A stretch of DNA of 52,356 bases. Source: Synergistaceae bacterium (GTDB taxonomy: Bacteria > Synergistota > Synergistia > Synergistales > Synergistaceae). The notes beneath the pieces were generated by a model, which did no database searches, had not been told where the DNA came from, and saw nothing but the letters and a program-made list of their open reading frames with translations. Shown here piece after piece: positions 4,910-24,144 of the stretch. The first letter of the stretch is position 1, and each line of letters starts with the position of its first letter. Where the stretch lies: assembly GCA_031260185.1 (NCBI GenBank), contig JAIRKI010000008.1, positions 1-52,356 of the forward strand, given 5' to 3'. The position numbers and the translations under genes are program-made.

Positions 4910-4942
4910 ACCGCGGGCAAACACTTCATGGAGCCTAAGCAT

Positions 4943-5899: not shown

Positions 5900-5932
5900 A
5901 ACGCGTTAAAATCACGCGGGGGAGCTGATCGA

Positions 5933-7444
5933 ATGAGGGATGACGCAACGACCGTCAAGATCAAAACCGCGCGGGGAGAGCGCGAAGTAGAAGCGGCGAT
6001 GGGGGCGAACCTGCTCGGCGTATTCCGCGCCAATGACATTCCGATAGCGGCGGGCTGCGGCGGGCGCGGAACGTGCGGCAAGTGCGGCGTCATAACGGGC
6101 GGCGTGAAAAAACTCGCCTGCGAGACAAAAGTCGAGCCGGATATGCGTGTCGAAATCGAAAACGAAGAGAACAGCTTCGCGATAGTGACCGACTACGCGG
6201 GAGGCGCGGCCGCCGCGCCTCCCGGCGAGTGCCAGCGTCCACGCGTCGCGATAGACGTCGGCACCACTACGGTGGTCTTGCAGTTGATAGACGCGTCGGA
6301 CGGGCGCGTCGTCGGGACGCGCTCGTTTCTGAACGGGCAGAGGATATACGGCGAGGATGTCGTGACGCGCATAAAGTACGCGGGCGAGGGCGGTCTGGAC
6401 ACGCTGAACCGGGCGATACGGGGCGGCCTGCTCTCCGCGTTCTGCGCGCTCTGCGCAGACGCGGGATTGGATCGCGGCCGGCCGGAATATATTTGCGTCG
6501 CCGGAAACACGACGATGATGTATCTGCTGCTGGGTCATCGCTGCGACTCTCTCGGGGCGTACCCGTTCGAGCCGGAATTCCCGATCAGGGAGCGATATAC
6601 TTTTTCGGATGTGTTCGGAAGCGACGCGTTCAGTTGTCCCGTATATCTCGTGCCGTGGGTGTCGGCCTACGTCGGCGGCGACATCACCGCGGGCCGGCTG
6701 GCCTGCCGCGCCGGACCCGATGAAACCGCGCTCCTGATCGACATGGGGACGAACGGAGAGATGATGCTGTGGTCGGGAGACAATATCCGGTGCTGTTCGA
6801 CGGCGGCGGGCCCCGCTTTCGAGGGCGGGGGGATAGAATGCGGCACGGGAAGCATTCCGGGCGCCATAAGCAAAGTCGGCCTCGCGGACGGCAAGTTTGT
6901 TTGCGAGACGATAGGCGGAGCGAGCCCGATTGGAATTTGCGGATCGGGAGCGCTCGACGCGTCCGCCTGTATGCTCAGGGGCGGATATATGGATGAAAGC
7001 GGACGCATGAACGACCCGTACTTCGGCGACGGAGTGGTCATAGCGGAGGGCGCGGGCGGCGGAAAGATAATCTTCACACAGAAGGACATAAGGGAAATTC
7101 AGCTCGCCAAGTCGGCGATCAGGGCCGGGGTGGAGATAATGCTCAAGGTATCGGAACTCTCGGCGGATCGGATCGACACCGTATACCTGGCGGGCGGGTT
7201 CGGGCAGAAACTGTGTCTCGAGAGCGCGGTCGAGATAGGCCTGATTCCGGAGGCGCTGCGGGAGAAAATCCGCGCGAGCGGCAACAGCTCGCTGGGCGGC
7301 TGCGTTAAAATCTGCCGCGACATGAAGATGATGGACGCCGCGCGCGCGCTCGCCAAAAAGGCGAGAGAGATACAGCTCAACACGCATCCCGATTTTCAGG
7401 ATCTGTTCATGGAACACATGATGTTCGGGCAGGAGGATGAATGA
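5933..7444 (+). CDS. RACo/RamA-like reductive activator of corrinoid enzymes (2Fe-2S ferredoxin domain + ASKHA ATPase, DUF4445)
   Basis: N-terminal CGGRGTCGKCGV plant-type ferredoxin motif. Acetate/sugar-kinase-like DVGTTTVV and DMGTNGEM phosphate motifs. Confidence 0.8.
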   Translation: MRDDATTVKIKTARGEREVEAAMGANLLGVFRANDIPIAAGCGGRGTCGKCGVITGGVKKLACETKVEPDMRVEIENEENSFAIVTDYAGGAAAAPPGECQRPRVAIDVGTTTVVLQLIDASDGRVVGTRSFLNGQRIYGEDVVTRIKYAGEGGLDTLNRAIRGGLLSAFCALCADAGLDRGRPEYICVAGNTTMMYLLLGHRCDSLGAYPFEPEFPIRERYTFSDVFGSDAFSCPVYLVPWVSAYVGGDITAGRLACRAGPDETALLIDMGTNGEMMLWSGDNIRCCSTAAGPAFEGGGIECGTGSIPGAISKVGLADGKFVCETIGGASPIGICGSGALDASACMLRGGYMDESGRMNDPYFGDGVVIAEGAGGGKIIFTQKDIREIQLAKSAIRAGVEIMLKVSELSADRIDTVYLAGGFGQKLCLESAVEIGLIPEALREKIRASGNSSLGGCVKICRDMKMMDAARALAKKAREIQLNTHPDFQDLFMEHMMFGQEDE

Positions 7445-7554: not shown

Positions 7555-10500
7555 ATGCAAACTGTTTCGGCGTTGTGCAGACCTCGCGAGAGCGTATTTT
7601 CCGATACAACACGCGACGATGTGCTGAATCTCAGCGACTTGATCGAAGGCAAAATCGACGCCGCTAAATTCTTCGACGAGAACTTCAAAACGAAGGGGAT
7701 GGAAATCCTCTTTGAAACGGCTTTCAGGAGATTCTCTGGCAAATCCGAAACGGGCGTCATCAAATTGACGCAGGCTATGGGCGGCGGCAAGACTCACAAT
7801 ATGCTGGCCCTGGCTCTGCTTGCCCAATACCCGGAGTTGCGCCAAAAGATAATAGGCGGTGAATTCAGTAATATCGGAGATGTCAAAGTTGTCGCGTTTT
7901 CAGGACGCGAAAGCGACGCGAACTTAGGAATCTGGGGTAGTATCGCTGAGCAACTGGGCATGAAAGAATTCTTCGCGGATCATTACGCGCCGCTCAAAGC
8001 TCCCGGAGAAAGCGCGTGGGTCAATCTGCTCAAAGGCAGGATGGCGCTCATACTGCTAGACGAACTGCCGCCTTATTTAGTGAACGCGAAGTCCATCACC
8101 GTAGGTAACTCTGACCTCTGCTCGGTGACGGTTACCGCGCTCTCCAACCTGTTCACCGCGATAGGCAAAGGAGAACTCGCGAACGTATGCCTTGTATTTT
8201 CCGACCTTAGGGCGACATATGAAGCGGGGAGTCAGTTGCTCTCGTCGAGCTTCAAAGAACTCGAGAACGAAGCGAACCGCGCCGCGTTGAACTTAGAGCC
8301 GGTCGCGCTGAATACCGACGAGGTTTATGACATTCTCCGCAAAAGGCTCTTCGCGGAATGCGCATCGTCCGCTTCGATAGCGGTCAACGAGATTGCCGCG
8401 GCTTATAAAGAAGCTCTCGCCGGCGCCGGCAGATCCGGCCTGACAGGTTATACGGGCGATTCCGTTTTCCTCGGAATCAAGGATTCTTATCCGTTTCACC
8501 CGTCCATTAAAGAGATCTACGCCCGTTTTAAGGAAAACCAGGGATTCCAGCAGACGCGCGGCCTCATCAGGCTGATGCGCCAAGTGGTGCGGAATTTTTT
8601 TGAGAGCGGTCACGCGGAGAAGAAAAATCTCATCAACGTATCCAACATCGATCTGAACGACCGTGGGATATTAGCTCTCATCAAGCAAATAAAACCCTCG
8701 CTTGAAGCCGCGATCAGCCACGATATAGCGCAGGGCGGCAAATCCGTCGCGGAAGTCATTGACGAGCAGAACGGCGAAAAGAAAGAGAAGTACGCTCAGG
8801 ACGTCGCGAGGCTCCTGCTTATGTCGTCGCTCAATGACACGCCAAACGGCGTAATGGGCCTGACCGAATCCGACGCCCTGGGTTTTCTGTGCAAACCGGG
8901 CGTTGACCTCAACAGTCACAGGAAAGCTCTCGACGAGATCGTTTCGCGGTGCTGGTATCTTAAAACAGACAATCGCGGGCGTTTCTACTTCCAAAATACG
9001 AAAAATATGGTAGCGGAGATGAACACGCTCGTTGATTCCTATTCGGACGAGAGCGCGAAGAAAGAACTTCGTAAATTCCTGGAGGGCAATTTCGATCCGA
9101 AGCTGAAAAAATGTTACGAATCTCTTTACGTCCTTCCGGCTATCGACGAAATTCACATCGAGCAGAACAAGGTGTCGCTCGTCATCTTCGAACCGTTCAC
9201 AGGAACAGGGCTTCACCCCGACTTGCGGAATTTCTATGAAAACTGCGCGTACAAGAATCGCGTCCTGTTCCTGTCCGGTCAGCGCAACGTGATGGAAAAA
9301 CTTTACGCCAACTCAAAGCGGCTTGCCGCTATTCGGCATATTATCGCCAATATGAGGAACGAGCACGTTCCCGAAACCGACCAGCAGTACAAGGAAGCGG
9401 AAAATCAGCACGACAAGGCTACTGCCGCGCTTTTACAGACCATACGGGAAACGTTTATCACTATTTACCATCCATCCAAGACAGGGTTGTCCCGCGAGGA
9501 TTTCAAGTTAGAGTTCAAGGAGAATAAGTTCAACGGCGAGGAACAGATTATCGCCGCGCTCAAGGGAGCGATGAAGTTCGAGGATTTTTCCTCCGAGGAC
9601 AATTTCATCGATTCACTCAGGAAAAAGGCCGAAGCGCGTATCTTCACGCAAAAGGAAATTCCGTGGAGTACGATTTCAGAGCGGGCGGCAACGGAAACAT
9701 CATGGCAATGGTATCATCCCAAACAGATGGACGAGCTTCGGAAGAAGTGCCTTGCCAATGGCGCGTGGCGGGAAATCGGCGGCTACATCGTCAAAGGCCC
9801 GTTCAAAAAGGAGCCGACCGACGTAGCCATAGAGCAGATGGACTACAACGAACAGACGGGCGAGTTTACCCTGAAAGTCAAACCCGTGCGCGGCAACAGC
9901 GTCTATTACGACATCGGCGCGGAACCGACGAAAGCGTCAAGCAAAGTCGAACAGCAGACGCTCGTCATTAAAGAACCCTCCGCGTACTTCGTATGCTGTG
10001 ACACGGATGGCGGCGAAAATCCCCATCCTACGGGCAAGGCGAAAAAATGGCTCGGCAAAGCTCCGCTTCGGCGCGAGCAGCGGCAAAACGCGAACGGCAA
10101 CAACGTACTGGAGTTGAAAACCCACAAGGCGTATGAAATCCGCTACACGACCGACGGTTCTAACCCAAAAGAGAGCGGAGGGCTGTACAGCGGCGAAATC
10201 GTACTGCCTCCCGGCTGCAAATTCGTCCGCGTGGCGGCGTACTGTAAGGACGAACTCGTCGCCGACGAGAGTATCCCCGTCGCCGCCGGACCCGGAAAAA
10301 AGAAAGTCGAAATCGACGATGCCAAATCGCTCGAATACACGCTGTCTTCGCAGAAGAAATGCGGCGACACCGAACTTGCTTACGCGGAGTTCGCGAAACT
10401 GAAACAGATAGCGGGGACGTTTATCCGGCAGTTTACCGTGACCATCAGCGAAAAGGGCAATCCCGACAACTACATGGAAATCACCACGGCCAAAGTTTCT

Positions 10501-10689
10501 TGGGATACGGGTAACTTGCAATCAATGGTGGACCTTATTCGCGAAACCGCTTTCGCGGGAAAAGAAGCCGAGGTTGAATTCGAATACAAAACGATTCAGT
10601 TTAACACAGGGATGGCGTTCAAACAGTGGGTCGAGGCGAACAAACTTGACGCCGGCGAGCTGAGTACAAAGGGAACCGTTAAGCAATAG
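7555..10689 (+). CDS. DUF499-type P-loop ATPase (defence locus component)
   Basis: Walker A in KLTQAMGGGKTHNMLALALL and Walker B-like LILLDELPPY. 1044 aa. Synteny with DUF3780 and DUF1156 genes. Confidence 0.7.
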   Translation: MQTVSALCRPRESVFSDTTRDDVLNLSDLIEGKIDAAKFFDENFKTKGMEILFETAFRRFSGKSETGVIKLTQAMGGGKTHNMLALALLAQYPELRQKIIGGEFSNIGDVKVVAFSGRESDANLGIWGSIAEQLGMKEFFADHYAPLKAPGESAWVNLLKGRMALILLDELPPYLVNAKSITVGNSDLCSVTVTALSNLFTAIGKGELANVCLVFSDLRATYEAGSQLLSSSFKELENEANRAALNLEPVALNTDEVYDILRKRLFAECASSASIAVNEIAAAYKEALAGAGRSGLTGYTGDSVFLGIKDSYPFHPSIKEIYARFKENQGFQQTRGLIRLMRQVVRNFFESGHAEKKNLINVSNIDLNDRGILALIKQIKPSLEAAISHDIAQGGKSVAEVIDEQNGEKKEKYAQDVARLLLMSSLNDTPNGVMGLTESDALGFLCKPGVDLNSHRKALDEIVSRCWYLKTDNRGRFYFQNTKNMVAEMNTLVDSYSDESAKKELRKFLEGNFDPKLKKCYESLYVLPAIDEIHIEQNKVSLVIFEPFTGTGLHPDLRNFYENCAYKNRVLFLSGQRNVMEKLYANSKRLAAIRHIIANMRNEHVPETDQQYKEAENQHDKATAALLQTIRETFITIYHPSKTGLSREDFKLEFKENKFNGEEQIIAALKGAMKFEDFSSEDNFIDSLRKKAEARIFTQKEIPWSTISERAATETSWQWYHPKQMDELRKKCLANGAWREIGGYIVKGPFKKEPTDVAIEQMDYNEQTGEFTLKVKPVRGNSVYYDIGAEPTKASSKVEQQTLVIKEPSAYFVCCDTDGGENPHPTGKAKKWLGKAPLRREQRQNANGNNVLELKTHKAYEIRYTTDGSNPKESGGLYSGEIVLPPGCKFVRVAAYCKDELVADESIPVAAGPGKKKVEIDDAKSLEYTLSSQKKCGDTELAYAEFAKLKQIAGTFIRQFTVTISEKGNPDNYMEITTAKVSWDTGNLQSMVDLIRETAFAGKEAEVEFEYKTIQFNTGMAFKQWVEANKLDAGELSTKGTVKQ

Positions 10690-10708
10690 TAGCTGGAGAT
10701 TGGAAAAG

Positions 10709-11272
10709 ATGGCGAAAAGGATAACTTACGGTTTCGGCGTAGACCCGGCGCAAAGCGCGAACCACTTTTTCGTGCTGATACGTCCGAAAACTATTGAAGA
10801 GACGACCACGCCGCCGATACGGATTTTCGAACGTTATTCCTGGACGGACGGAGATGAGCAAATTCTGAATGACGCCGACGTACTGAGGCTTGAAATATCC
10901 AAACACAAATGGACCGAAGTCAAAACGGCCCTGACGATGGAATTCAACGCCCGTTTGAAAAAAGAGGGTTTGAAAACCGGCAAATTTGCCATAAATGGTG
11001 GCACGCCCGTCGAGCGGTTGTTCGGAAAAGAACTGATGGTGTTACTTTGGGCTATCGAGGACAGCGATCCTTCTTTGATTTCCCCTGCCGTTCGAAACTG
11101 GAAAGGGCTTATGCCGGAGGAGCGTTGGTGGCTTTATACGATGACCAACGCCGCGACGGGCGGCCTGACCGACCGAAAGGGCTGGCGCAAGGCCTTGCGA
11201 TATGCCTTGTGCGAGAACCCGGTGGTGGAAAGGCCCCGACAGCTGCCGCTGTTCGACATGGAGGAGGCATGA
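10709..11272 (+). CDS. DUF3780-like small protein of the DUF499/DUF1156 locus
   Basis: 187 aa in the canonical position between the DUF499 and DUF1156 genes. GGAG RBS 10 nt upstream of the ATG at 10709. Family call rests on context and size, not on a motif. Confidence 0.45.
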   Translation: MAKRITYGFGVDPAQSANHFFVLIRPKTIEETTTPPIRIFERYSWTDGDEQILNDADVLRLEISKHKWTEVKTALTMEFNARLKKEGLKTGKFAINGGTPVERLFGKELMVLLWAIEDSDPSLISPAVRNWKGLMPEERWWLYTMTNAATGGLTDRKGWRKALRYALCENPVVERPRQLPLFDMEEA

Positions 11273-11592
11273 ATATGCTCACTCATAAGGATATATGCAA
11301 GGCGGTCGGCAATTCCGCGCTGAAATATAAAATAAAAAACGCTTATTATTTCGGCTCATACGCTAAAGGGACACAGACCGACGACAGCGATTTGGATCTG
11401 CTGGTGGAGTTTGAACCCGCGGCAACGCTGCTTACTCTCGCGGGGTTGATAGGTGATTTGGAAGATACCCTGCGTAAAGAAGTGGATGTCGTTATTCTTC
11501 CGTTAGAAAAGGACAGTCATTTGATTTTGGAAAGGGTGGTGAAGTGCTATGCCGATAAACAGAAACAGGCAAATCATAACGCGAATGTTTGA
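11269..11592 (+). CDS. mntA: MNT-type nucleotidyltransferase antitoxin
   Basis: GSYAKGTQTDDSDLDLLVEF matches GS-x10-DxD of minimal nucleotidyltransferases. The start overlaps the DUF3780 stop (ATGA). Confidence 0.85.
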   Translation: MNMLTHKDICKAVGNSALKYKIKNAYYFGSYAKGTQTDDSDLDLLVEFEPAATLLTLAGLIGDLEDTLRKEVDVVILPLEKDSHLILERVVKCYADKQKQANHNANV

Positions 11593-11995
11593 AGAAGCGA
11601 GTCATATTCCAGAGATGATATTCGGTTTGGATTATAACGCTTTCATGAATGACACTACAAAAAAATACGCCATTTGCATGGTGCTGGTCAATGTCGGCGA
11701 GCTGGCAAACAAATTGTCGGACGATTTCAGAAACGAACATAGCGCTCTTCCGTTGGCGCAAATGCGAAAGACCAGAAACGTTATTGCCCATGATTATGAT
11801 CAGATAAAATGGCCGCTCATCCGGGGAATCGCGACACAGGATGTCCCTGTGCTGCTGCCGGAACTGGAGCGAATATTGAAAGAATATGAAGCAAAGGAAG
11901 GGCCCTTTGATTTTGAGTCGAATCATAATAATAACTTGCGTTTGATCGCCAGGGCAGACAAAACGTTCGATGATGACAGCGAAAACGTGAAATGA
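11549..11995 (+). CDS. hepT: HepT (DUF86, HEPN) RNase toxin
   Basis: Rx4H HEPN motif RNVIAHDY. Overlaps the MNT gene (alternative start at 11585). The stop overlaps the methylase start (ATGA at 11992-11995). Confidence 0.8.
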   Translation: MPINRNRQIITRMFEEASHIPEMIFGLDYNAFMNDTTKKYAICMVLVNVGELANKLSDDFRNEHSALPLAQMRKTRNVIAHDYDQIKWPLIRGIATQDVPVLLPELERILKEYEAKEGPFDFESNHNNNLRLIARADKTFDDDSENVK

Positions 11996-14799
11996 CGATT
12001 TCTTTTATTGAGCGTCAATTCCCCGTTTCGAAGCTCTCCAAAGAGAGCTACAAGGAGCGGAAAGCCGGGGCAAGTCAGACCCTTACAGGGCTTGGCAAGT
12101 GGTGGGGACGCAAGCCGCTCGTGCTTGTCCGCGCCGCTATTTTGGGTTGCCTCATGCCCGCGTCGGACAACCCACGCCGAGATATGGAAATTTTCCTGAA
12201 AATAATGTCCATGGATGACGGCGGGCTGTGGCTCCGCCATAAAGCCTTGGAGAATAAAAGCGACAATTACTGGTGTGAACGGGAGAAAGAACTCTACCGT
12301 GATTTCAACAGGCTCGGCTACGACGAAAAACTGAAAACCTGCGTCCGCCCGGAACAGTTCGAGCGTCCCCCCGACGACCACGCGTGGAACGAGATAAATC
12401 ATCACTTGGGCACTCACGCTTATAACCTGCGAGGCCTCACGCGGCAGCTCTCCGAAAAACGCTTCGGTCAGAACGCCGTTGTCGGCGATTGCTTCTGCGG
12501 CGGCGGCTCCATTCCCTTCGAGGCGGCGCGCATGGGGCTTGACGTTTACGCGTCAGACCTGAACCCCATCGCCGGATTGCTGACGTGGGCGGCGATCAAC
12601 ATCTGCGGCGCGAGCGACGCTGAGATAGAAGGAATAAAGAAATTTCAGCGGGAAGTCTATGACGCGGTGGACAAAGAGATAACCGAACTCGGCATAGAGC
12701 ATAACGAGAAAGGCGAACGCGCTGTATCGTACATCTATTGCGTGGAAGCAATTTGTCCGGAGTGCGGGACAAAAGTCCCTATGGCGCCGTCGTGGGTTAT
12801 CGGCAAAGGGACGAAAACAATTGCCCAACTTGTTGAGGACAATGGGAATTATGATATTCGAGTAAAAATGAACGCGACCGCCGCCGAAATGAAGCAAGCC
12901 GAAAACGGAACGGTAACGTCAAAGGGTCTTGCTTGCCCGCGTTGCGGAAAGACCACCCCGATTGGCGTCCTGCGCCGCGACCGAAAGGATGAGAACGGCA
13001 ATACCGTCTATGGCCTGCGCCGTTGGGAAAAACACGAGTTTGAACCGCGTCCCGGCGACATTTTTCAAGAGCGGTTGTACGCCGTTCGTTATGAACACGA
13101 ATATGCGGAAAACGGCAAAAAGAAAACCAAACGTTACTACCGCGCCCCCAGCGAACGCGACTTGCAAAACGAAGAAAAGGTACGCGAAATTGTCGCCGAA
13201 AATATCGTCAAATGGCAGGAACAGGGCCTTGTGCCGAGCATGGAGATTGAACCGGGAGATAAAACGACCGAGCTTATACGTAATCGCGGCTGGGCGTACT
13301 GGCACCAGTTGTTCAACGCGCGGCAGTTGCTGGTGTTGAGCAGGTTTGCGGAACAGGCAAATAGCGCAAACTCTTTACTGAATCAGATCGCAAGTTTACT
13401 TTGTGTTTATAGGCACGTCGGTTGGACTTCGCGGCTTTGTATTTGGGACGTTTCTCGTGATGAATCCAAAAATACGCTTATGAATCAGGCATTGAACACA
13501 TTATTTAATTACGGTTCAAGAAGCGTTACGATGTGCAGTTCGTGTTGGAATACGAAATACAACCAATACCGCAAAATGACCGACACAAGCGTTATTTTAA
13601 CAGATGCCCGCAATATAACGCATAACGCCAATATCTGGCTCACCGACCCGCCTTACGCCGACGCGGTGAACTACCACGAACTCTCCGAGTTTTTTCTCGC
13701 GTGGGACAAGCGGCTGCTGAAAGAGGCCTTCCCCGGCTGGTACGCGGACAGCAAGCGCGTCCTGGCCGTTCGCGGGGGCGAAAACTTCGCGCAGAGCATG
13801 ATCGACATATACTCCAACCTCACCGCGCATATGCCGGACGACGGAATGCAAATCGTGATGTTCACGCACTCCGACCCGGCTGTGTGGGCGCAGCTCGCGT
13901 TGATAATGTGGAAGGCGGGGCTGAAAGTCACCGCCGCGTGGAACGTCGCCACCGAGACGGACGCGAGCGGCCTAAAAGACGGTAACTACGTCAAGGGCAC
14001 CGTGCTGCTCGTGCTTCGCAAGCGCACAGGCGCGAGTGAGGCGTTTCTCGACGAGATCAACTCGGACATCAAGAATGAGGTCAAGAGCCAGATCGAGAGT
14101 ATGCAGACGCTCGACGACAAAGAAGACCCGAATTTCTCCGACCCGGACTACGTGCTGGCCGCCTACGCGGCCTCGCTGAAAGTGCTGACGAGTTACGGCG
14201 CGATCGGCGAAATCGATTTGGACTACGAACTTGACCGCGCCATATACAAACCGGCGGAATCGAAGGTCGTCGCTCTGATCGAACGTGCCAAGAAGCAGGC
14301 GTATGACTGCGTAATCCCGAAGGGCTTCGACAGTTTCCTGTGGAAAGATCTGACCCCCGCCGAGCGGTTCTACGTCAAGGGCCTGGAGAGCGAGAAAAAC
14401 GGCGGCTATCAGATTTCGACGTATCAGGAGTACGCGAGGGGCTTTGCGTTGTCCGGTTACGGCCAGCTCATGGCAAACGAGCGGGCGAACACCTGCCGCC
14501 TGAAGACGCCATCCGAGTTCGCGATGCGGACGGTGGGCGACGCGCCTGGATTCGAGGACTCCACCCTTCGGCTCGTCCTGGCTGCGATCCACATCGCGCT
14601 GAAAGAGGACGAGCAGCCTGTCAAGGGCTTGTACCACCTGAAAAGCAACCTGCGGGATTATTGGGGCAGCCGCGACATGGTAAAACAACTGCTCGCGTTC
14701 CTGAAAGACACGCGGGACATATCGAATATGCCCCACTGGAAAGAAGCCGCTCAAATGGCGGAACATCTGTACGTGCTGGTGGATAACGACCATGTGTGA
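11992..14799 (+). CDS. DUF1156-type DNA methyltransferase with zinc ribbon (COG1743-like)
   Basis: N-terminus FIERQFPVSKLSKESYKERKAG...GLGKWWGRKP, CPECG...CPRCG zinc ribbon, and catalytic TDPPYAD motif. Confidence 0.8.
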   Translation: MTISFIERQFPVSKLSKESYKERKAGASQTLTGLGKWWGRKPLVLVRAAILGCLMPASDNPRRDMEIFLKIMSMDDGGLWLRHKALENKSDNYWCEREKELYRDFNRLGYDEKLKTCVRPEQFERPPDDHAWNEINHHLGTHAYNLRGLTRQLSEKRFGQNAVVGDCFCGGGSIPFEAARMGLDVYASDLNPIAGLLTWAAINICGASDAEIEGIKKFQREVYDAVDKEITELGIEHNEKGERAVSYIYCVEAICPECGTKVPMAPSWVIGKGTKTIAQLVEDNGNYDIRVKMNATAAEMKQAENGTVTSKGLACPRCGKTTPIGVLRRDRKDENGNTVYGLRRWEKHEFEPRPGDIFQERLYAVRYEHEYAENGKKKTKRYYRAPSERDLQNEEKVREIVAENIVKWQEQGLVPSMEIEPGDKTTELIRNRGWAYWHQLFNARQLLVLSRFAEQANSANSLLNQIASLLCVYRHVGWTSRLCIWDVSRDESKNTLMNQALNTLFNYGSRSVTMCSSCWNTKYNQYRKMTDTSVILTDARNITHNANIWLTDPPYADAVNYHELSEFFLAWDKRLLKEAFPGWYADSKRVLAVRGGENFAQSMIDIYSNLTAHMPDDGMQIVMFTHSDPAVWAQLALIMWKAGLKVTAAWNVATETDASGLKDGNYVKGTVLLVLRKRTGASEAFLDEINSDIKNEVKSQIESMQTLDDKEDPNFSDPDYVLAAYAASLKVLTSYGAIGEIDLDYELDRAIYKPAESKVVALIERAKKQAYDCVIPKGFDSFLWKDLTPAERFYVKGLESEKNGGYQISTYQEYARGFALSGYGQLMANERANTCRLKTPSEFAMRTVGDAPGFEDSTLRLVLAAIHIALKEDEQPVKGLYHLKSNLRDYWGSRDMVKQLLAFLKDTRDISNMPHWKEAAQMAEHLYVLVDNDHV

Positions 14800-14821
14800 A
14801 TATCCTCAGATGGACAGGGTT

Positions 14822-14838
14822 ATTGTGACTATCACAAT
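14822..14838. promoter_or_regulatory. Perfect 7-3-7 palindrome ATTGTGA-CTA-TCACAAT in the only true intergenic gap of island 1
   Basis: Read directly. Lies 20 nt upstream of the ATG at 14858, just 5' of the AAGGTGA RBS. Confidence 0.4.
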
Positions 14839-14857
14839 TTAAGAAGGTGAAATTGAG

Positions 14858-16243
14858 ATGCGGGAGAAATGCCAATCGCCGTCGTCGCAGTCGTTTTTTA
14901 AGATTCATGTAGAAGATTTCGGGAAAATTGCCAAAGCGGACATCGAATTGTCTCCTCTTACGCTGTTTATCGGAGACAACAACAGCGGCAAGAGTTATTT
15001 GCTCACATTGATTTACGGCTTGCTGAGCAAACCGTTTTTCGATTTGTTTCGACAAAATAAGGATTTTATATCCAAGCGTTTCATACCGATGATTGAGGAT
15101 GGATTGTCCGGCAAAACGGAACGATACCGCTTTAGTCCCGACGATTTCGGTCTTTTGGAACGCACGGTAAATGACATTTTGGAAAGGGATAAAAAAATAT
15201 TTATAGAACGGATTTTCAACAAAAAAATCCCGATAGGAAAGCTGGCGGTCGAATTTTGTCCGCCGTTTCCGGAAATCGACCTTTGCTTCGACGCCGTGGC
15301 GAACGATGGGGAGATGAGTTATCTGCGCCTGGAAACGCGGCCGAAAAAATGCTGTTATTCAAGGCTGATTAATACTTCGAGATTTATGGACGGCATAGAC
15401 AGGAAATCTCTTGTTGCATTGATGGTGAGCGCGATAATCAGAACTTTACTCGCGATGGATCGCCCCGCGTATCTGCCCGCGTCGAGGACGGGGTTTCTAT
15501 TGGCTTTCAAATCTCTGGTCGGAGGTTCGATAGAAAAAGCGTTCGGCATCGCCGGCGCTGTTAACGCCGCGGGAAACGCCGATAAACTGACGGTTCCGGT
15601 CATCGATTTCCTAAAAATGCTCGCCGCGTTTTCAACAGACGAGGAATCGCGTCACATAGATTATCGCGCGCGGACTGCGGAGTTCGTCGAAAATAAAATT
15701 CTGGACGGCAAAATCATAGTGACTAAAACCCCCGTGCCGGATTACATGTATTTGCCTCTGGGGTTTTCGGAATCTTTGCCGATGTTCGTTTCCTCCGGGG
15801 TCGTTACCGAAACTTTGCCGCTGTGGCTGGTTCTAAACAAACCCGGGATAAACTGCCTGATGATCGAGGAGCCGGAGACGGGCCTGCATCCCGCGCTTCA
15901 AAAGGAAATCGCGCGCGCGCTCGCTAAAATCGCGAACCTCCATTTTCCGGTCATCGCTTCGACACACAGCGACATCATTCTTCAGCATGTCAATAATATG
16001 ACGCGCCTCAAAAAACGCCCTGACCGCGAACAAGTGATGTCGAAACTTGAATACGGCGAAGATGATCGGCTGGGCTCGGAGCGCGTTGCCGTTTATCAGT
16101 TTGACGCAAGCGATGGCGGGACAACCGTGACGAAGATCGAATACGATGAAGAGCGGGGTTTTGCCGCTCCGACGTTTATCGACGCGCTCGGCGGGATACT
16201 GGACGAGACGATGGACATCGAATCGGAGGAGTTTTCCGGATGA
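14858..16243 (+). CDS. ABC/SMC-type ATPase (AAA_15/AAA_21-like), nested module 1
   Basis: Walker A GDNNSGKS, LPASRTG, Walker B LMIEEPETGLHP, H-loop ASTHSD. Confidence 0.8.
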   Translation: MREKCQSPSSQSFFKIHVEDFGKIAKADIELSPLTLFIGDNNSGKSYLLTLIYGLLSKPFFDLFRQNKDFISKRFIPMIEDGLSGKTERYRFSPDDFGLLERTVNDILERDKKIFIERIFNKKIPIGKLAVEFCPPFPEIDLCFDAVANDGEMSYLRLETRPKKCCYSRLINTSRFMDGIDRKSLVALMVSAIIRTLLAMDRPAYLPASRTGFLLAFKSLVGGSIEKAFGIAGAVNAAGNADKLTVPVIDFLKMLAAFSTDEESRHIDYRARTAEFVENKILDGKIIVTKTPVPDYMYLPLGFSESLPMFVSSGVVTETLPLWLVLNKPGINCLMIEEPETGLHPALQKEIARALAKIANLHFPVIASTHSDIILQHVNNMTRLKKRPDREQVMSKLEYGEDDRLGSERVAVYQFDASDGGTTVTKIEYDEERGFAAPTFIDALGGILDETMDIESEEFSG

Positions 16244-16842
16244 TCTCCGAATACACGCGAGCAAGGCTGTCGGAAATCAACAAGGACAGATACGAGGAAT
16301 CCGATAAAGAATTTATTCTGGAAGAAACAGAGAAAGAGGGCCGCGCGCGGTATCATTTGTCAATTTCGATCCCGTCCTTGCTTTTTAAAAAACTCGACGA
16401 AAAATGGGGGTTTGATTTTCTGAAGCGGAAAAAATGCGCCGACCACATCGTTTTTGAACTGAAAAGCGCAGATAAATGCGCGCTTCATATCTTCGAGCTC
16501 AAAAGAACCATAACTAAAAAAACGTGGCTTCGCATTGTCGAACAATACAACGGCGCCTACGTCAGAGGAGAGGTCATAGCGGCTTTTCTCGGATTAAAGA
16601 TTGAAAAAACGACCGTGAACGCGTGTTTTAAGGAAGATAAATTGAAGCAATGCCACGAAACAATTACCCCGCGCGCGGAGATCTCGGATGCCAAACTACG
16701 TAAAGCACTGAAAATCCGGAGTGATGAAGAAATCGATTTGAACTGCGTTGGTGGTATCGGCGGCATTCATTGCGTACATAAAAAAAACATCCTCTACGAA
16801 AACGGAGAAGGCTGTCTATATGGAGAAGGCTGTTTATGCTGA
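16240..16842 (+). CDS. Small partner protein, possible PD-(D/E)xK nuclease fold
   Basis: ATGA overlap with the ATPase stop. D-x19-ExK pattern (CADHIVFEL...ALHIFELKRT). No HNH or Toprim motif seen. Confidence 0.4.
   Translation: MISEYTRARLSEINKDRYEESDKEFILEETEKEGRARYHLSISIPSLLFKKLDEKWGFDFLKRKKCADHIVFELKSADKCALHIFELKRTITKKTWLRIVEQYNGAYVRGEVIAAFLGLKIEKTTVNACFKEDKLKQCHETITPRAEISDAKLRKALKIRSDEEIDLNCVGGIGGIHCVHKKNILYENGEGCLYGEGCLC
16804..16839 (+). repeat. 18-nt tandem duplication GGAGAAGGCTGTCTATAT / GGAGAAGGCTGTTTATGC spanning the helicase RBS and start codon
   Basis: 15/18 identity read directly. The second copy supplies GGAGAAGG plus a 6-nt spacer plus the ATG at 16836. Confidence 0.8.
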
Positions 16843-19586
16843 ACAGATATTCGTCGAGAACCGATAAATTGGGACAGTTCATCAACGATAATCTGTCCGG
16901 CGCGGTCGGCTACGACCGTATCGCCGGGTACTTCTGCTCGTCCATTCTGGAAGTCGCGGGCGAAGCGATAGAGGCTGTGGGTGGCAAAGTTCGCGTTGTC
17001 TGCAACTCGGGGCTTGCCCCGTCCGACGTCGCGGTCGCCAGGCTCGGGCAGCGTGTGGAATGGAACGACTTCAAGCCTGAGAAAGTCTACGCCTCCGATG
17101 GCGCTGTCGCGCGGCTGAAAAAGCTGTACGAGTTATTGAAGTCCGGCAAACTCGAAGTTCGAGTGCTGCCCGACGAGGTTTACGGTCTGATGCACGGCAA
17201 GGCGGGCGTAATCACGTATTCCGACGGAAAAAAGACTTCATTTCTAGGCAGTATCAACGAGACGAAGAGCGCGTTCACTACCAACTACGAAATGGTCTGG
17301 GAGGACGACGACCCCGCTTCCGCGGCGTGGGTGCAGGAGGAGTTCGACTGTCTGTGGAACGACAAGTACGCCGTCGCGCTCGCCGACTATGTGATCGAGG
17401 ACGTGAAGCGCGTTTCCGAGCGGCGGCCCATCCCTCTGAAGAAATGGCGCGAGATGGAAGAGGAGCCTATCCCATCAGTCGCGGCCGAGGAACCGATTTA
17501 TCGCGAACAGTTTGGATTATGGACGCATCAGAAATACTTTGTCGCCCGCGCTTTCAACGAGCATAAACAGCGAGGCGGGGCGAGGCTGCTGCTTGCGGAT
17601 CAGGTCGGTTTGGGCAAGACGGTTCAGCTTGCGATGTCCGCGAAGCTGATCGCGCTGTATGACGATAAGCCTGTACTGGTAATCGTCCCGAAAACGCTGA
17701 TGTTTCAGTGGCAGGATGAATTGAAAACGCTGCTGAATATGCCTTCCGCGGTCTGGACTGGACGTTTTTGGATTGACGAAAACGGCTACGAGTATCCAAT
17801 CGACAGCGCAAAGGCGATTTTAAAATGCCCGCGCAAGGTCGGGATTGTATCGCAAGGCTTGATTATCCGCAAATCGGAATCCGCGGAGCTTCTGAAGTCG
17901 ATGAGGTTTTCCTGCGTCATCCTCGACGAGGCGCACCGGGCGAGGCGCAAAAACCTCGGCAAAGACCCGGATAAACACAGGGCCCAACCAAACAACTTGT
18001 TAGCGTTTCTCGATGAAATAACTCTCAGGACAAAGAGCCTACTGCTTGCTACGGCGACGCCCGTTCAGATCGATCCGATCGAGGCATTCGATCTTTTGCT
18101 GGCTCTGGCGCTGCCGCAGGACGCGGATAAGGTATTGGGCGACAATTACAGCGTTTGGAGGCATACGCCGGGATTGAGCATCAAATATATTCAAGGTGAA
18201 GAACCTTACCCGAACGCCGAAGCCGAGATGTGGGAGATTGTCCGTAACCCGTTTCCGCCGCGCACCGAAGACAACAATCGCATTGGAACACTTCGAGATC
18301 AGCTTGACATTGCCGACGACGTGTTCGTCATTTCCCAGAATCGCTATGACGAGTTCTCAAATCCGCGGAAAAACAGAGTCAGGATACTCTATGACGACGA
18401 TGATTTCATCAAAAATTACAATCCGTATATCCGAACGATCGTCCGGCGAACCCGTGAATTTTTGGAAAACCACAACAATCCTGATACCGGCGAACCGTAT
18501 CTGAAAAAAATCGACGCGGTACTGCTCGGAGAAAAGGACACCGAAGCCCTCGAGCTCTCCGGTTATCTGGCGCAGGCGTATGGAATCGCCGAGGAGTTCT
18601 GCGATATGCTTTCCGCGAGAGTCAAAAACGGCGGTTTTATGTCCACTCTGCTCTTAAAACGCATTGGCAGCACAATGTTCGCCGGGGAGAACACGGCAAA
18701 GAAAATGCTCGCCTGGACGACAGAGGGTAAAGAGAAACTCCGTTCCCTGTATGACGAACTTGCTGACGAAGACGACGAAGCGGAAGACGCGGCGCAAAGC
18801 GATATCAAAGATTTGACCGCGGAGGAAACCGAATGTTTGGAAAAACTCGTCAATGTGCTGAAATCCAATACCGATACCGACCCTAAGTACAACCGAGTCA
18901 AAACTATACTTACCCAAGGCGTCGAAGACGAAGGCGCCTGGAAAGACAATGGATGCATACTTTTTACCCAATATTACGACAGCGCGGTCTATGTTGCCGA
19001 CCGCCTGTCCGATGACTTCCCAAATATCGCGATTGGATTGTACGCGGGAGGCTATAAATCAGGGATATACAGGCGCGGTTTATTCAAGAAGGAGAGCAAG
19101 GACGAGATCAAGCGGCTAGTCAAAACACGAGAGTTGACGATACTCGTCGGCACCGACGCCGCCTCTGAGGGTTTGAACCTGCAAGCGTTGGGCACTCTGA
19201 TCAACATCGACTTGCCGTGGAATCCAACGAGACTCGAACAGCGTAAGGGGCGCATTCAGCGTATAGGCCAACTGGCGGAGAGAATATATATCTACAATAT
19301 GCGATACAAAGGCTCTGTGGAGGACAAGGTTCACAGTAAACTTTCCGGGCGCTTGCGGGAAATTTACGCTCTCTTTGGGCAAATTCCCGATGTATTGGAG
19401 GATGTGTGGGTAGCTATCGCGCAGAAACGCGAAGACCTCGCCGAGGAAGCGATCCGAAAGCTGCCCGGGAAGAATCCGTTCATCCTCAAATACGAGGAAA
19501 CGATCCCCGACTGCGGCGATTGGGAAAAGTGCGCCGTGGTGTTGGACAAGCGAGACGAACTCAGAGAACTGCTAAAAGGGTGGTGA
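16836..19586 (+). CDS. PLD-domain + SNF2-family helicase
   Basis: N-terminal HxK...GSxN (LMHGKAGV...FLGSINET). SNF2 motifs LLLADQVGLGKT, ILDEAHRAR, ILVGTDAASEGLNLQ and QRKGRIQRIGQ. Confidence 0.85.
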   Translation: MLNRYSSRTDKLGQFINDNLSGAVGYDRIAGYFCSSILEVAGEAIEAVGGKVRVVCNSGLAPSDVAVARLGQRVEWNDFKPEKVYASDGAVARLKKLYELLKSGKLEVRVLPDEVYGLMHGKAGVITYSDGKKTSFLGSINETKSAFTTNYEMVWEDDDPASAAWVQEEFDCLWNDKYAVALADYVIEDVKRVSERRPIPLKKWREMEEEPIPSVAAEEPIYREQFGLWTHQKYFVARAFNEHKQRGGARLLLADQVGLGKTVQLAMSAKLIALYDDKPVLVIVPKTLMFQWQDELKTLLNMPSAVWTGRFWIDENGYEYPIDSAKAILKCPRKVGIVSQGLIIRKSESAELLKSMRFSCVILDEAHRARRKNLGKDPDKHRAQPNNLLAFLDEITLRTKSLLLATATPVQIDPIEAFDLLLALALPQDADKVLGDNYSVWRHTPGLSIKYIQGEEPYPNAEAEMWEIVRNPFPPRTEDNNRIGTLRDQLDIADDVFVISQNRYDEFSNPRKNRVRILYDDDDFIKNYNPYIRTIVRRTREFLENHNNPDTGEPYLKKIDAVLLGEKDTEALELSGYLAQAYGIAEEFCDMLSARVKNGGFMSTLLLKRIGSTMFAGENTAKKMLAWTTEGKEKLRSLYDELADEDDEAEDAAQSDIKDLTAEETECLEKLVNVLKSNTDTDPKYNRVKTILTQGVEDEGAWKDNGCILFTQYYDSAVYVADRLSDDFPNIAIGLYAGGYKSGIYRRGLFKKESKDEIKRLVKTRELTILVGTDAASEGLNLQALGTLINIDLPWNPTRLEQRKGRIQRIGQLAERIYIYNMRYKGSVEDKVHSKLSGRLREIYALFGQIPDVLEDVWVAIAQKREDLAEEAIRKLPGKNPFILKYEETIPDCGDWEKCAVVLDKRDELRELLKGW

Positions 19587-19736
19587 CCGATATATAGATA
19601 TATCGTTTGCGGAGGCTCCGACAATCATTAATTTGCGCATTATTCATCGGCGTAACCGGTAAAGTATTGTCATAACCAGGTGCGCGAGCAATTTATCTAT
19701 ACATCGGTCACCTCTCTCTAAAATCGCGAAAAACGC

Positions 19737-19780
19737 TTGACTGTAGTACGTGTTTGAATCACAATGATATTGTGATTCAA
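19737..19780 (+). promoter_or_regulatory. relB promoter with overlapping operator palindrome
   Basis: TTGACT (19737-19742), a 17-nt spacer, then CACAAT. Perfect 12-3-12 palindrome TTGAATCACAAT-GAT-ATTGTGATTCAA at 19754-19780. Confidence 0.5.
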
Positions 19781-19804
19781 TATGATGCTTATGAGGTGAG
19801 CAAA

Positions 19805-20089
19805 ATGGCAACACGGACACACAGCGCGTTAATTCAAGTAAGGCTCGACGAAAGCGTAAAGCGCGAAGCGGACGCGTTGTTCGCGGACCTCGGGTTAGAC
19901 ACTCCCACAGCGATTCGCATTTTCCTCAATCAAGCGATAAGACACGAAGGAATGCCGTTTGAAGTCGCGAAACCGCGGCCGAACGCCGAAACGCTCAACG
20001 GAATGAAGATACTTCCGGAACGGTACGGCAGTTTCCGTGAACTCCGCGACGAAGCGGAACTGAGGGCTGAGGAAGCCGATGAAATATGA
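19805..20089 (+). CDS. relB: RelB/DinJ-family antitoxin
   Basis: IQVRLDESVKREADALFADLGLDTPTAIRIFLNQAIRHEGMPFEV is a typical ribbon-helix-helix DinJ/RelB. GAGGTG RBS. Confidence 0.8.
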   Translation: MATRTHSALIQVRLDESVKREADALFADLGLDTPTAIRIFLNQAIRHEGMPFEVAKPRPNAETLNGMKILPERYGSFRELRDEAELRAEEADEI

Positions 20090-20207
20090 AATCCAACGAT
20101 CGGCGAGATTTAAGCGTGATTTGAAAGTCGCGATAAAACGAGGTTACGACATCGACAAACCGGAAGCGGTCGTTGACCCGCCCGCAAACGCCCCAATGGG
20201 GTATTGA
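20079..20207 (+). pseudogene. Truncated YafQ/RelE-type toxin remnant (42 codons)
   Basis: MKYEIQRSARFKRDLKVAIKRGYDIDK... matches the toxin N-terminus and overlaps the relB stop. It terminates after 42 aa, before the catalytic C-terminal half. Confidence 0.6.
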
Positions 20208-20230
20208 CGAAATCATACGGGAGGTTCGGC

Positions 20231-21136
20231 ATGGGTAAGATCGTTGATGTGCTAAAAAGCGGCAAGGTGCTTGTTTCGGATGGGGCATGGGGAACGTTTC
20301 TCTATGAAAAGGGCTTGAAGGCCGGGGAGTGTCCCGACGCCTGGTCGATCGACCGTTTCGACGACGTGGCGGATATCGCGAAGAGTTACGCGGACGCGGG
20401 AGCCGACATGGTGAAGAGCGACAGCTTCGGCGCGAATTATTACAAACTCGAGCACTTCGGCCTCCAGGACAAGGTGACCGAGATAAACGAAGCCGCGGCG
20501 AGGGCTTCCAGGAAAGGCGCGGGGCCGGACAAGTTTGTCATCGCTTCCGCGGGCCCCACCGGAAAACTTCTGGTGATGGAAGAGGTCACGGAAGAGGATC
20601 TGTACAACGCGTTCAGGGAGCAAGCCGTCGCGCTCGAGAAAGGCGGCGCGGACGCGATATGCGTCGAGACGATGAGCGACGCCGGGGAAGCGAAGTGCGC
20701 CGTCAGGGCCGCCAGGGAAAACACCAAACTCGAGGTCATCGCCACATTCTCGTTCGACAAGACAATCCGGGGCGATTACAGGACCATGATGGGCCTGTCG
20801 CCGACGGACGCCGCGAGGGAAGCGCTCGATGCCGGCGCCGACATTGTCGGCACAAACTGCGGCAACGGCATCGGGCGCATGATCGATATCGTGAGGGAGA
20901 TGAAGACCGCGTATCCGGACGCGTTTATCCTCGTCCACGCGAACGCCGGCCTGCCCGAGAACAGAGACGGCAAAGATTTTTTCCCGGAAACCCCGCGGAT
21001 GATGGCGGATCAGATCGGGTCTCTGATAAAAGCCGGAGCCAACATAGCAGGCGGTTGTTGCGGCACGACTCCCGCGCATATCGCCGCCATAAGCGAAGTT
21101 GTGAAAAATTACAACCTTCGTCCCGCTTTTCAGTGA
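20231..21136 (+). CDS. Stand-alone homocysteine S-methyltransferase-domain protein (MetH N-terminal-module-like, Zn-thiol)
   Basis: VSDGAWGT, GTNCG and GGCCGTTPAHI (three Cys Zn ligands). GGGAGG RBS before the ATG at 20231. Confidence 0.8.
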   Translation: MGKIVDVLKSGKVLVSDGAWGTFLYEKGLKAGECPDAWSIDRFDDVADIAKSYADAGADMVKSDSFGANYYKLEHFGLQDKVTEINEAAARASRKGAGPDKFVIASAGPTGKLLVMEEVTEEDLYNAFREQAVALEKGGADAICVETMSDAGEAKCAVRAARENTKLEVIATFSFDKTIRGDYRTMMGLSPTDAAREALDAGADIVGTNCGNGIGRMIDIVREMKTAYPDAFILVHANAGLPENRDGKDFFPETPRMMADQIGSLIKAGANIAGGCCGTTPAHIAAISEVVKNYNLRPAFQ

Positions 21137-21241
21137 CTTACGGACACGCTTCACAAATAAAAAAACAAAAATTTGGGTTGCGGGCGCGGCCATTTTAGGT
21201 GTTAAAATTATATGCCATGATGAACCATTAGGAGGCTTCAA

Positions 21242-23511: not shown

Positions 23512-24082
23512 CGCGAAAAACGCCGAAAAAATAATCTCGCTGGGCGTGACGCTGTTTATTATCACAGTCGTCACCGGACTGATTTTGGGCGTCGTGCACG
23601 ACATCACCCTCGAACCGATACGCGTAACGCGGGAAAACCTCAAGACAGTAGCGCTGAGGGGCGTGATGCCCGGCGCGGACGAGTTCAAGACAGCGCAAAA
23701 AGCCGAAGACGCCGACCCGATGATAAAGGACGTTCAGGAAGCGCTGTCGGGCGGAAAAACCATCGGCTACTGCGTCACCGTCACGCCGCGCGGTTACGCC
23801 GGCACAATCGAGCTGGTGGCGGGAATAACGAACAACGGGCAGCTCGCCGCCGTCAGAATTTTAAACCACTCGGAAACGCCGGGCCTGGGAGCGAAATCCG
23901 TGCTGCCGGAATTTTACGAGCAATTCAGGGACAGCGATAAAGTGACCGTCGTCAAAAACGCGCCGGAAGCGCCGGGTGAAATACAGGCCATATCGGGCGC
24001 GACCATCACGTCAAACGCCGTTGCGGGAGGCGCGAACGCCGCTTTGGAATATTGGCGCGGTCATCTTGCCGAAGGAGAATGA
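23498..24082 (+). CDS. rnfG: Rnf complex subunit G (FMN-binding)
   Basis: SGATITSNAV FMN-attachment motif. Position in the operon. Confidence 0.85.
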   Translation: MRQSSAKNAEKIISLGVTLFIITVVTGLILGVVHDITLEPIRVTRENLKTVALRGVMPGADEFKTAQKAEDADPMIKDVQEALSGGKTIGYCVTVTPRGYAGTIELVAGITNNGQLAAVRILNHSETPGLGAKSVLPEFYEQFRDSDKVTVVKNAPEAPGEIQAISGATITSNAVAGGANAALEYWRGHLAEGE

Positions 24083-24144
24083 AGTTTGAAACAAAATTGT
24101 TTCATGCCGTTTTGTGCCTTCCATAGAAAGGAATGGTCATAATA

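Follow-up and report, generated by a model that had tools for sequence, protein, structure and literature searches.

We analysed a 52,356-nt contig of a Synergistaceae bacterium (JAIRKI010000008.1, assembly GCA_031260185.1), hereafter the window, and in it eight consecutive open reading frames (ORFs) on the plus strand at positions 7555-19586. Most likely, this locus is a horizontally acquired restriction-modification-like defence operon of Type 2 of the BR (BREX-related; BREX, bacteriophage exclusion) systems, with two independent mobile accessory defence cassettes placed precisely at its gene junctions. The comparison of loci shows the two inserts to be independently mobile cargo and not dedicated subunits. 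This is drawn from the empty junctions of the nearest relatives, a deletion scar in one of them (locus L001), free-standing copies of the second cassette, the diverse contents of the corresponding slots in related loci, and strata in the GC content of third codon positions (GC3).

The array consists of the following features.

7555-10689, plus strand: DUF499 ATPase, core
10700-11272, plus strand: DUF3780 ORF, opening with TTG at 10700, likely start ATG 10709, core
11269-11592, plus strand: MntA-like nucleotidyltransferase (MNT), start ATG 11269 or 11275, embedded cargo 1a
11549-11995, plus strand: ORF of a HepT-like HEPN protein, likely start ATG 11585, embedded cargo 1b
11992-14799, plus strand: DUF1156 methylase, core
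14800-14857, plus strand: intergenic gap of 58 nt, the only real gap in the array
14858-16243, plus strand: ABC/OLD-type ATPase, embedded cargo 2a
16240-16842, plus strand: 200-aa protein, embedded cargo 2b
16836-19586, plus strand: PLD/HKD-Snf2 helicase, core

A preliminary description of this DNA had proposed an eight-gene array with overlapping junctions and a single gap, containing two extra modules within a core. The ORF listing and the reading of the junctions bear this out, with minor caveats at start codons. ATGA stop/start overlaps occur at 11269-11272, 11992-11995 and 16240-16243, and the genes of the 200-aa protein and the helicase share seven nucleotides, ATGCTGA (16836-16842). The DUF3780 start lies 10-19 nt downstream of the DUF499 stop at 10689; ATG 10709, with GGAG 10 nt upstream, is more likely than TTG 10700. 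The MNT gene may start at ATG 11275, 7 nt past GGAGGAGG, in which case the 4-nt overlap would become a 2-nt gap. The HepT start is most likely ATG 11585 and not 11549, in agreement with the start of the Pfam match; the overlap of the MNT and HepT genes is then 8 nt (ATGTTTGA), and it is 44 nt if HepT starts at 11549.

For comparison, 80 related loci, one genome per species, were fetched by the DUF3780 profile, and the window proteins were mapped onto them. At empty junctions of these loci the median spacing of core genes is 3-19 nt. The tight packing of the window array is thus not special but normal for the family.

Overlapping junctions flank each insert, and the array runs on one strand throughout. 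Simple scans found no intergenic terminator-like site on the plus strand, and fewer such sites overall than in shuffled sequence. These features fit an integrated eight-component machine, in which the inserts work for the BR core as functional subunits or dedicated regulators, at a stoichiometry set by translational coupling. The preliminary description had likewise seen in the junctions functional integration rather than simple adjacency. For the reasons given with each insert below, we consider such a machine very unlikely.

Every gene identity suggested earlier is backed by profile hidden Markov models (HMMs) from Pfam, PADLOC and NCBIfam, and the motifs listed at that stage (GGGKTH, CPECG, CPRCG, DPPY, HGK...GSIN, GLGKT, DEAH) were all located in the translations. 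By its profile matches, the product of 7555-10689 is the BrxC-like DUF499 protein of a Type-2 BR system, an AAA+ ATPase of the STAND/ORC-like kind. It matches Pfam PF04465 (E 3.6e-26) and, over the full length, PADLOC DUF499 (E 1.3e-184), and has a Walker A motif GGGKTH at residue 76 and a Walker B motif LILLDE at residue 165. Residues 852-898 match Fn3_assoc and CHB_HEX_C_1 of Pfam, so that one of two tandem Fn3-like domains was detected. DUF3780 (Pfam PF12635, E 3.6e-45; PADLOC DUF3780, E 4.8e-39; 1331 homologues) is encoded by a standalone gene between DUF499 and the methylase, the same position as in related loci.

The product of 11992-14799 is predicted to be a DUF1156 N6-adenine DNA methyltransferase. 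It scores 1284.6 bits with NCBIfam NF042963, above the equivalog cut-off of 1000 bits, and matches PADLOC DUF1156_MTase (E 3.7e-279) and Pfam DUF1156 (E 6.7e-23). Its motifs are motif I VGDCFCGGG (164), the zinc-ribbon motifs CPECG (255) and CPRCG (315), and DPPY (552). The helicase scores 1214.5 bits with NF042964 (cut-off 1100 bits) and matches PADLOC PLD_Helicase (E 2.9e-239). Its Pfam domains are PLDc_2 (residues 43-174) and, C-terminal to it, SNF2-rel_dom and Helicase_C; its motifs are HGK (120) and GSIN (138) of the PLD part, GLGKT (258) and DEAH (364), and profile searches found no TUDOR match in it. This fusion of an N-terminal PLD/HKD nuclease with a Swi2/Snf2 helicase is presumed to be the restriction effector. 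The helicase has Snf2-family relatives in the Protein Data Bank (PDB), and for the DUF499 protein and the methylase a PDB search gave no relative by sequence.

BR systems are defined as DUF499-centred, with Hma (helicase-methylase-ATPase) as Type 1, and with Type 2 found in 1120 taxa (Rakesh & Krishnan, NAR 2026, PMC12839542). The traits of Type 2 are a standalone DUF3780, an HKD domain at the N-terminus of the Snf2 helicase replacing TUDOR, and often Fn3-like domains in DUF499; these beta-sandwich domains precede the DUF499 C-terminal domain in 53% of Type-2 members (PMC12839542). The window locus contains a DUF499 ATPase, a standalone DUF3780, a DUF1156 methylase, an HKD-Snf2 protein and an Fn3-like domain. 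Because of the standalone DUF3780, the N-terminal HKD of the helicase and the Fn3-like domain in DUF499, we assign its core on profile evidence to Type-2 BR, a sister subtype of Hma and not Hma itself.

The preliminary description had used the label Hma. The general kinship holds; however, PADLOC and NCBI models and the current classification separate this locus from Hma. The best PADLOC models are DUF499, DUF3780, DUF1156_MTase and PLD_Helicase (E 1e-39 to 1e-279), whereas the HmaA, HmaB and HmaC models give partial matches (E 1e-30 to 1e-52). Thus HmaB matches the methylase with E 2.2e-30, compared to 3.7e-279 for DUF1156_MTase, HmaC matches the ATPase with E 3.7e-52, compared to 1.3e-184 for DUF499, and the HmaA model matches residues 640-875 of the helicase alone (E 2.8e-38). 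Hma shares with the window a homologous DUF499 ATPase, DUF1156 methylase and Snf2 helicase, and the same habit of embedding defence cassettes. Its methylase/helicase junction is likewise occupied: in Halomonas, Septu lies between hmaB and hmaA. On the other hand, Hma has no DUF3780, and HmaA combines an N-terminal TUDOR with a C-terminal PD-(D/E)XK nuclease (NOV_C/DUF3883), whereas the nuclease of the window helicase is the N-terminal PLD/HKD domain.

The triad of ATPase, methylase and helicase is also shared with Type-3 BREX (BrxC, PglXI/BrxXI methylase, BrxHII helicase, PglZ) and is homologous to it according to PMC12839542; the PADLOC models of PglXI and BrxHI/BrxHII match the window proteins weakly. 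However, the effector of the window locus is predicted to be an HKD nuclease instead, and profile searches of the eight proteins and the flanking ORFs gave no match to PglZ or BrxA/BrxB. The earlier remark that no mechanistic work is known holds for Type-2 BR, as far as our literature search goes. In Type 1, HmaA has been tested, and alone it protected against T4 via a nickase domain (PMC11232893).

The order DUF499-DUF3780-methylase-helicase was found in 79 of the 80 related loci; the remaining one, L059, matched DUF3780 alone. We considered three slots, namely A between DUF499 and DUF3780, B between DUF3780 and the methylase, and C between the methylase and the helicase, with counts taken over evaluable loci. 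Slot A is occupied in 2/70 loci (3%), slot B in 6/74 (8%) and slot C in 13/56 (23%), so that 77-97% of evaluable slots are empty, which speaks against the inserts being parts of one machine. The comparison of homologous loci that had been suggested as a check showed the slots to be variable. The core order is conserved, the slots are variable, and the inserts have a separate evolutionary history; the methylase/helicase junction is the main insertion hotspot (23% of related loci).

The cargo lies on the core strand in all 21 occupied slots. Slot B holds MNT+HEPN pairs, a Schlafen-type protein and an OLD-type ATPase. Slot C holds an ABC ATPase with a partner, Schlafen-type proteins, SMODS, Abi_2, EVE, Fic and MazF. 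Schlafen proteins of the architecture AlbA_2-HATPase_c_4-wHTH occur in six slots, and an AAA_21 ATPase with a 170-aa partner is also among the slot cargo. In slot B of L052 and slot A of L079, we observed genes of the 23S rRNA-intervening sequence protein (PF05635). Two loci are doubly occupied, A+B and A+C; simultaneous occupation of B and C was seen in the window and in none of the 80 loci.

Embedded systems were reported in 62.7% of Hma loci (Payne et al. 2024, 10.1101/2024.01.29.577857) and in about 66.5% in another survey (PMC11232893). The ABC-ATPase + nuclease dyads HEC-01, HEC-02 as well as HEC-03 are the commonest Hma cargo, and 96.7% of the genes embedded point in the same direction as the system that hosts them (10.1101/2024.01.29.577857). 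The published catalogue of BR systems lists HEPN/MNT modules and dyads of OLD-ABC with REase, HNH or PIN (PMC12839542).

Type-2 BR is the closest known system to the window locus (PMC12839542; NCBIfam NF042961-NF042964, 'anti-phage-associated'; PADLOC PDLC02189-PDLC02193). The four core proteins and their order agree between the two, as do the standalone DUF3780, the N-terminal HKD on the helicase and the Fn3-like DUF499 domain, and auxiliary OLD-ABC + nuclease and HEPN/MNT modules within the locus are common to both. There is no essential difference; the window locus is distinguished by filling slots B and C at once, and by a probable nuclease partner of its ATPase from a family without a Pfam or PADLOC model matching the window protein.

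The first insert, in slot B, is identified from profiles and motifs as an MntA-like nucleotidyltransferase antitoxin with a HepT-like HEPN RNase toxin. The MNT protein matches Pfam Polbeta and NTP_transf_2 (E about 4e-13) and PADLOC PDC-S09 (E 1.2e-18) and contains the motif GSx10DSDLD, GSYAKGTQTDDSDLD. The HepT protein matches Pfam PF01934 (E 1.2e-16) and contains RNVIAH, which has the form Rx4-6H. As in type VII MntA-HepT systems, the MNT gene is upstream of the HEPN gene and overlaps it, and the GSx10DxD and Rx4-6H motifs are both present; in contrast to these systems, the window pair is embedded in a defence operon and is not free-standing.

In the three nearest relatives (L102, L101 and L001, with DUF3780 identity of 88, 84 and 80%), the DUF3780 and methylase genes overlap by 4 nt, and nothing lies between them. 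For this reason, we read the MNT-HepT pair as a recent precise insertion, with ATGA coupling recreated on both sides. The absence of the pair from these relatives also argues against its being a subunit of the core. On the other side, MNT+HEPN pairs recur in slot B of three other loci (L038, L048, L055), and many Type-1 BR systems encode a fusion of HEPN with DUF499 (PMC12839542), as might be the case if HEPN proteins belonged to the machine. However, the HEPN family of the recurring pairs is PF05168 and not PF01934, and tblastn detected no homology between these pairs and the window pair at E<1e-5.

The second insert, in slot C, starts with an ATPase matching Pfam AAA_15 (E 4.1e-23) and AAA_21 (E 1.3e-12), with a Walker A motif GDNNSGKS. 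Its best PADLOC models are PD-T4-4_A (E 3.9e-36) and PDC-M47A (E 3.8e-25), each matched in two partial stretches. Its best PDB relative by sequence is the OLD-family endonuclease 6p74 (E 8e-07). The following gene encodes the 200-aa protein, which has no Pfam, PADLOC or NCBIfam match. Word-indexed searches gave 2 matches with the protein and 6 with a profile, and an exhaustive HMM search was needed to collect the family, which then comprised 322 representative homologues (clusters at 50% identity). An alignment of 68 diverse members has only three invariant residues, D68, E86 and K88. With this alignment, the AlphaFold2 (AF2) model reaches pLDDT 91, compared to an uninformative 48 with three sequences. 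In the model, one strand opens with D68 and the following strand contains E86-x-K88, the arrangement to be expected of a PD-(D/E)XK nuclease. The matches of the model in Foldseek, all non-significant, are enriched in PD-(D/E)XK enzymes (NucC, HamA, BsmI, Bse634I, SduA, viral cap-snatching endonucleases). A profile search of PDB sequences with the family returned nothing. Among the 68 members, one matches PD-T4-4_B (9e-5) and four match PDC-M47B weakly (best 0.0046); these two models are the partners of the two best models of the ATPase. The 200-aa protein is probably a PD-(D/E)XK nuclease effector paired with the ATPase.

PD-T4-4 is a system of an NTPase and a PD-(D/E)XK nuclease (10.1101/2025.07.10.664194). 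Because of this, the best models of the ATPase and the B-model matches of the family, we describe the second insert as a distant PD-T4-4/PDC-M47-like ATPase-nuclease cassette, the nuclease assignment being probable rather than proven. Like PD-T4-4, the PADLOC candidate PDC-M47 and HEC-02 (ABC ATPase + NERD nuclease), it pairs an ABC/OLD-type ATPase with a small protein encoded directly after it, in the window probably of PD-(D/E)XK type; Hma or BREX loci often harbour such cassettes. It differs from PD-T4-4 and PDC-M47 in that the match of the ATPase covers part of the profile and the partner matches no B-component model. We also considered the 200-aa protein as a divergent DUF4276/TOPRIM partner, and rejected this, as BLASTP finds no similarity to the DUF4276 protein encoded at 31387-31977 in the window. 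The ATPase of the cassette and the AAA_21 ATPase beside that DUF4276 gene are unrelated at the BLASTP level.

The conserved A-B gene pair of PD-T4-4 and PDC-M47 is seen in this cassette as well. A homologue of the 200-aa protein lies directly 3' of a full-length ATPase homologue (30-49% identity) in 18 of 19 metagenome loci, found with a 12-sequence alignment, and in L081; the remaining metagenome locus has no upstream sequence. On these metagenome contigs and L081, no BR core genes were found within 7 kb of the cassette. Its neighbours there include PglZ, polysaccharide-synthesis clusters and a DNA methylase, and the free-standing copies have a consensus promoter TTGATA-17-TATAAT. In L081 (226-4765; Logan contig of SRR31169012), a homologous cassette is immediately upstream of a PglZ gene, and the cassette family therefore also occurs inside or adjoining BREX-type loci. 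The occurrence of the pair in unrelated contexts, away from any BR genes, is at odds with the functional integration that had been proposed for it, as is the variety of unrelated cargoes in the slots elsewhere.

Slot C of L001 holds an ATPase with 70% identity to that of the window. Its ORF (L001 7552-8844; Synergistaceae metagenome-assembled genome contig JAISMH010000168.1) ends with ...TKIECDENGIGEGCL, in which the ATPase is fused to the ~11 C-terminal residues of the 200-aa protein. Read at the sequence level, this indicates an in-frame deletion scar, by which the nuclease gene and the tail of the ATPase were removed and the core was left intact. The ATPase-nuclease cassette was thus ancestral to both lineages, with later loss of the nuclease in L001, and an intact core after this loss is difficult to reconcile with an integrated machine. 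Taken with the empty slot B of the nearest relatives, it points to gain and loss of cassettes within short evolutionary times, without loss of the ATGA coupling. The GC3 values are stratified into chromosomal flanks (0.72-0.77), core BR genes (0.64-0.69) and cargo (0.50-0.59; MNT 0.51, HepT 0.52).

Another possibility is that the inserts, above all MNT-HepT, are selfish hitch-hikers, which persist by post-segregational killing without any role in phage defence, the junction being a permissive landing site. Indeed, MntA-HepT is a bona fide toxin-antitoxin family by its NCBIfam names, a second, decayed toxin-antitoxin pair (a RelB-like gene and a truncated ORF, presumably YafQ-like) lies at the edge of the island, the GC3 of the cargo is distinct, and cargo decays, as the scar in L001 illustrates. 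However, defence types (Schlafen, Abi_2, SMODS, OLD/ABC ATPases, EVE, Fic) overwhelmingly dominate the slot cargo in the 80 loci, of nine Hma-embedded candidates put to the test seven gave protection against phage (10.1101/2024.01.29.577857), and PD-T4-4 was selected experimentally as an anti-phage system (Vassallo et al. 2022, PMC9519451; 10.1101/2025.07.10.664194). We consider hitch-hiking unlikely.

For a defence operon with two mobile cassettes, the following scheme can be proposed. The methylase, with its DPPY motif, would place an m6A mark on host DNA (model after PMC12839542). The STAND-like DUF499 ATPase would scan for and recognise unmarked or foreign DNA, with DUF3780 as a possible reader of the modification, and would license the HKD-Snf2 translocase-nuclease to cut unmarked DNA. 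In type VII toxin-antitoxin systems, HepT is restrained by MntA. By analogy, the HepT RNase of the first cargo would be kept inactive by the MntA nucleotidyltransferase. In the second cargo, the ABC/OLD-type ATPase would act as a sensor controlling the small PD-(D/E)XK-type nuclease, in the manner of OLD, PARIS, Septu and PD-T4-4. Both cargoes would be co-expressed with the core through their position in the operon, and the 58-nt gap probably provides the ATPase-nuclease cassette with a promoter as well. The two cargoes would most likely serve as autonomous back-up or abortive-infection layers in case a phage disables or evades the core. A back-up role of embedded modules was proposed by Payne et al. 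(10.1101/2024.01.29.577857) and Rakesh & Krishnan (PMC12839542).

Several points weigh against this interpretation. Firstly, four proteins align with their NCBIfam equivalog models below the cut-offs: DUF499 with NF042962 (767.6 bits, cut-off 1200) and DUF3780 with NF042961 (145.9 bits, cut-off 200), both over the full length, and MNT with MntA_antitoxin (51.8 bits) and HepT with HepT_toxin (27.6 bits), both with a cut-off of 60 bits. The latter two thus fall short of the type VII equivalogs while passing as members of the Pfam families. Secondly, the nuclease call for the 200-aa protein is based on the invariant D...ExK triad, the order of secondary structure elements and the non-significant fold matches. 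Foldseek comparison of the model with PDB and the viral library BFVD gave no match at E<=0.001 (best E 0.2 and 0.075, respectively), and the window protein itself matches neither PD-T4-4_B nor PDC-M47B. Finally, the biochemical steps, co-transcription, anti-phage phenotype, methylation and restriction are taken from knowledge of the families. Our literature search found no experimental study of DUF3780-type (Type-2 BR) systems, and restriction-modification logic is unproven even in the sister Type 1, where over-expression of HmaB left T4 sensitivity unchanged (PMC11232893).

The only intergenic promoter-like site of the array found by a simple scan, TGGACA-16-CACAAT (14811-14838), lies in the 58-nt gap. 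The gap also contains a perfect palindrome ATTGTGActaTCACAAT (14822-14838) and a ribosome-binding site AAGGTGA; its sequence is not conserved in the closest relative, L001. Judged from these signals, the array may plausibly be a single operon in which the ATPase-nuclease cassette has an internal promoter, and the earlier estimate of at most two transcription units fits the sequence as well. An AT-rich hairpin after the helicase (19588-19605) was considered as a terminator and rejected, as it folds no better than shuffled sequences (z = -0.04).

Downstream of the helicase, a RelB/DinJ-like gene has a promoter-like site TTGACT-17-CACAAT over another palindrome, TCACAATgatATTGTGA (19759-19775). 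The two palindromes consist of the same 7-mers in opposite arrangement, and each overlaps the -10-like CACAAT. On the plus strand of the 52 kb, ATTGTGA occurs at these two palindromes only, and TCACAAT there and at 7794. One repressor, e.g. the RelB-like antitoxin, could act on both palindromes, so that the ATPase-nuclease cassette would be wired to the toxin-antitoxin remnant; we regard this as a doubtful conjecture. If true, an embedded nuclease module within a BREX-related operon would be under the control of a regulator derived from a toxin-antitoxin system, and the 200-aa protein would define a new effector family for PD-T4-4-like systems. A CRP-like reading of the TGTGA/TCACA palindromes was rejected, as the spacing is 3 or 7 nt and not 6 nt. 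The RelB-like gene and its palindrome were also rejected as belonging to the mobile BR island: in only one of the 80 related loci is the helicase followed by a RelB-like gene (32% identity), and neither palindrome was found in any of them.

One could also suppose that the locus is an inactive relic, a decaying island neither expressed nor functional. No consensus sigma-70 promoter was detected in the 110 nt upstream of DUF499, the neighbouring island in the window has split Snf2 and Mod genes, and the adjacent YafQ-like toxin is truncated. However, comparison with the family profiles shows the eight ORFs to be of full length, the catalytic motifs that were checked are all intact, and ribosome-binding sites are seen at the junctions of the array. 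A relic is, in our view, very improbable.

The BR island is set within metabolic genes of the sort typical for a methylotrophic anaerobe, whose neighbourhood it interrupts; GC3 is 0.72-0.77 in the flanks and 0.50-0.69 in the island. The upstream flank (1-7444) contains genes of methanol/corrinoid methyltransferase systems, namely a B12-binding protein, MtaB, CobW and RACo. In the downstream flank (20204-26259), a homocysteine S-methyltransferase-like gene is followed by rnfCDGEAB. Between the helicase and this flank, the region 19754-20207 contains the RelB/DinJ-like antitoxin gene (PF04221, E 9.7e-13) and then a 42-aa ORF (20079-20207, MKYEIQRSARFKRDLKVAIKRGYD...), which we take to be the N-terminal part of a YafQ/RelE-type toxin. 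These two are probably a truncated toxin-antitoxin remnant at the island edge.

A second defence island of lower GC content, resembling type III restriction-modification, follows at 26320-38223 on the plus strand.

26320-27264 and 27302-29545, plus strand: HKD+Snf2 (PADLOC C3a139), split in two ORFs
upstream of HEC-01A/B, plus strand: DUF4391
30254-31390, plus strand: HEC-01A (E 3.5e-152), between DUF4391 and Mod
31387-31977, plus strand: HEC-01B/DUF4276, between DUF4391 and Mod
32021-32773 and 32757-33929, plus strand: Mod methylase, split in two ORFs
33929-35119, plus strand: PDC-S02 (YhcG/DUF1016) nuclease, between Mod and Res
within the second island, plus strand: Res (REase_III, E 1.9e-278)

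The break in Mod is just downstream of an A-rich run GGGAAAAAAAGAAAAAACC (about 32707-32725). The split Snf2 and Mod genes could reflect a frameshift, pseudogenes or phase variation.

That BR and Hma loci embed other systems, and that they carry OLD-ABC + nuclease dyads and HEPN/MNT modules as cargo, is already published (Payne 2024; Liu 2024; Rakesh & Krishnan 2026), and the window locus leaves the current picture unchanged. It adds the slot statistics for Type 2, evidence for a recent gain of MNT-HepT and the deletion scar in L001. It also adds the family of the 200-aa protein (322 clusters), absent from Pfam and likely a PD-(D/E)XK partner unmodelled in current libraries. As an intact example of Type-2 BR with two candidate back-up modules in one co-oriented array, the locus would be a reasonable construct for tests of layered immunity and for determination of the DUF1156 methylation motif.

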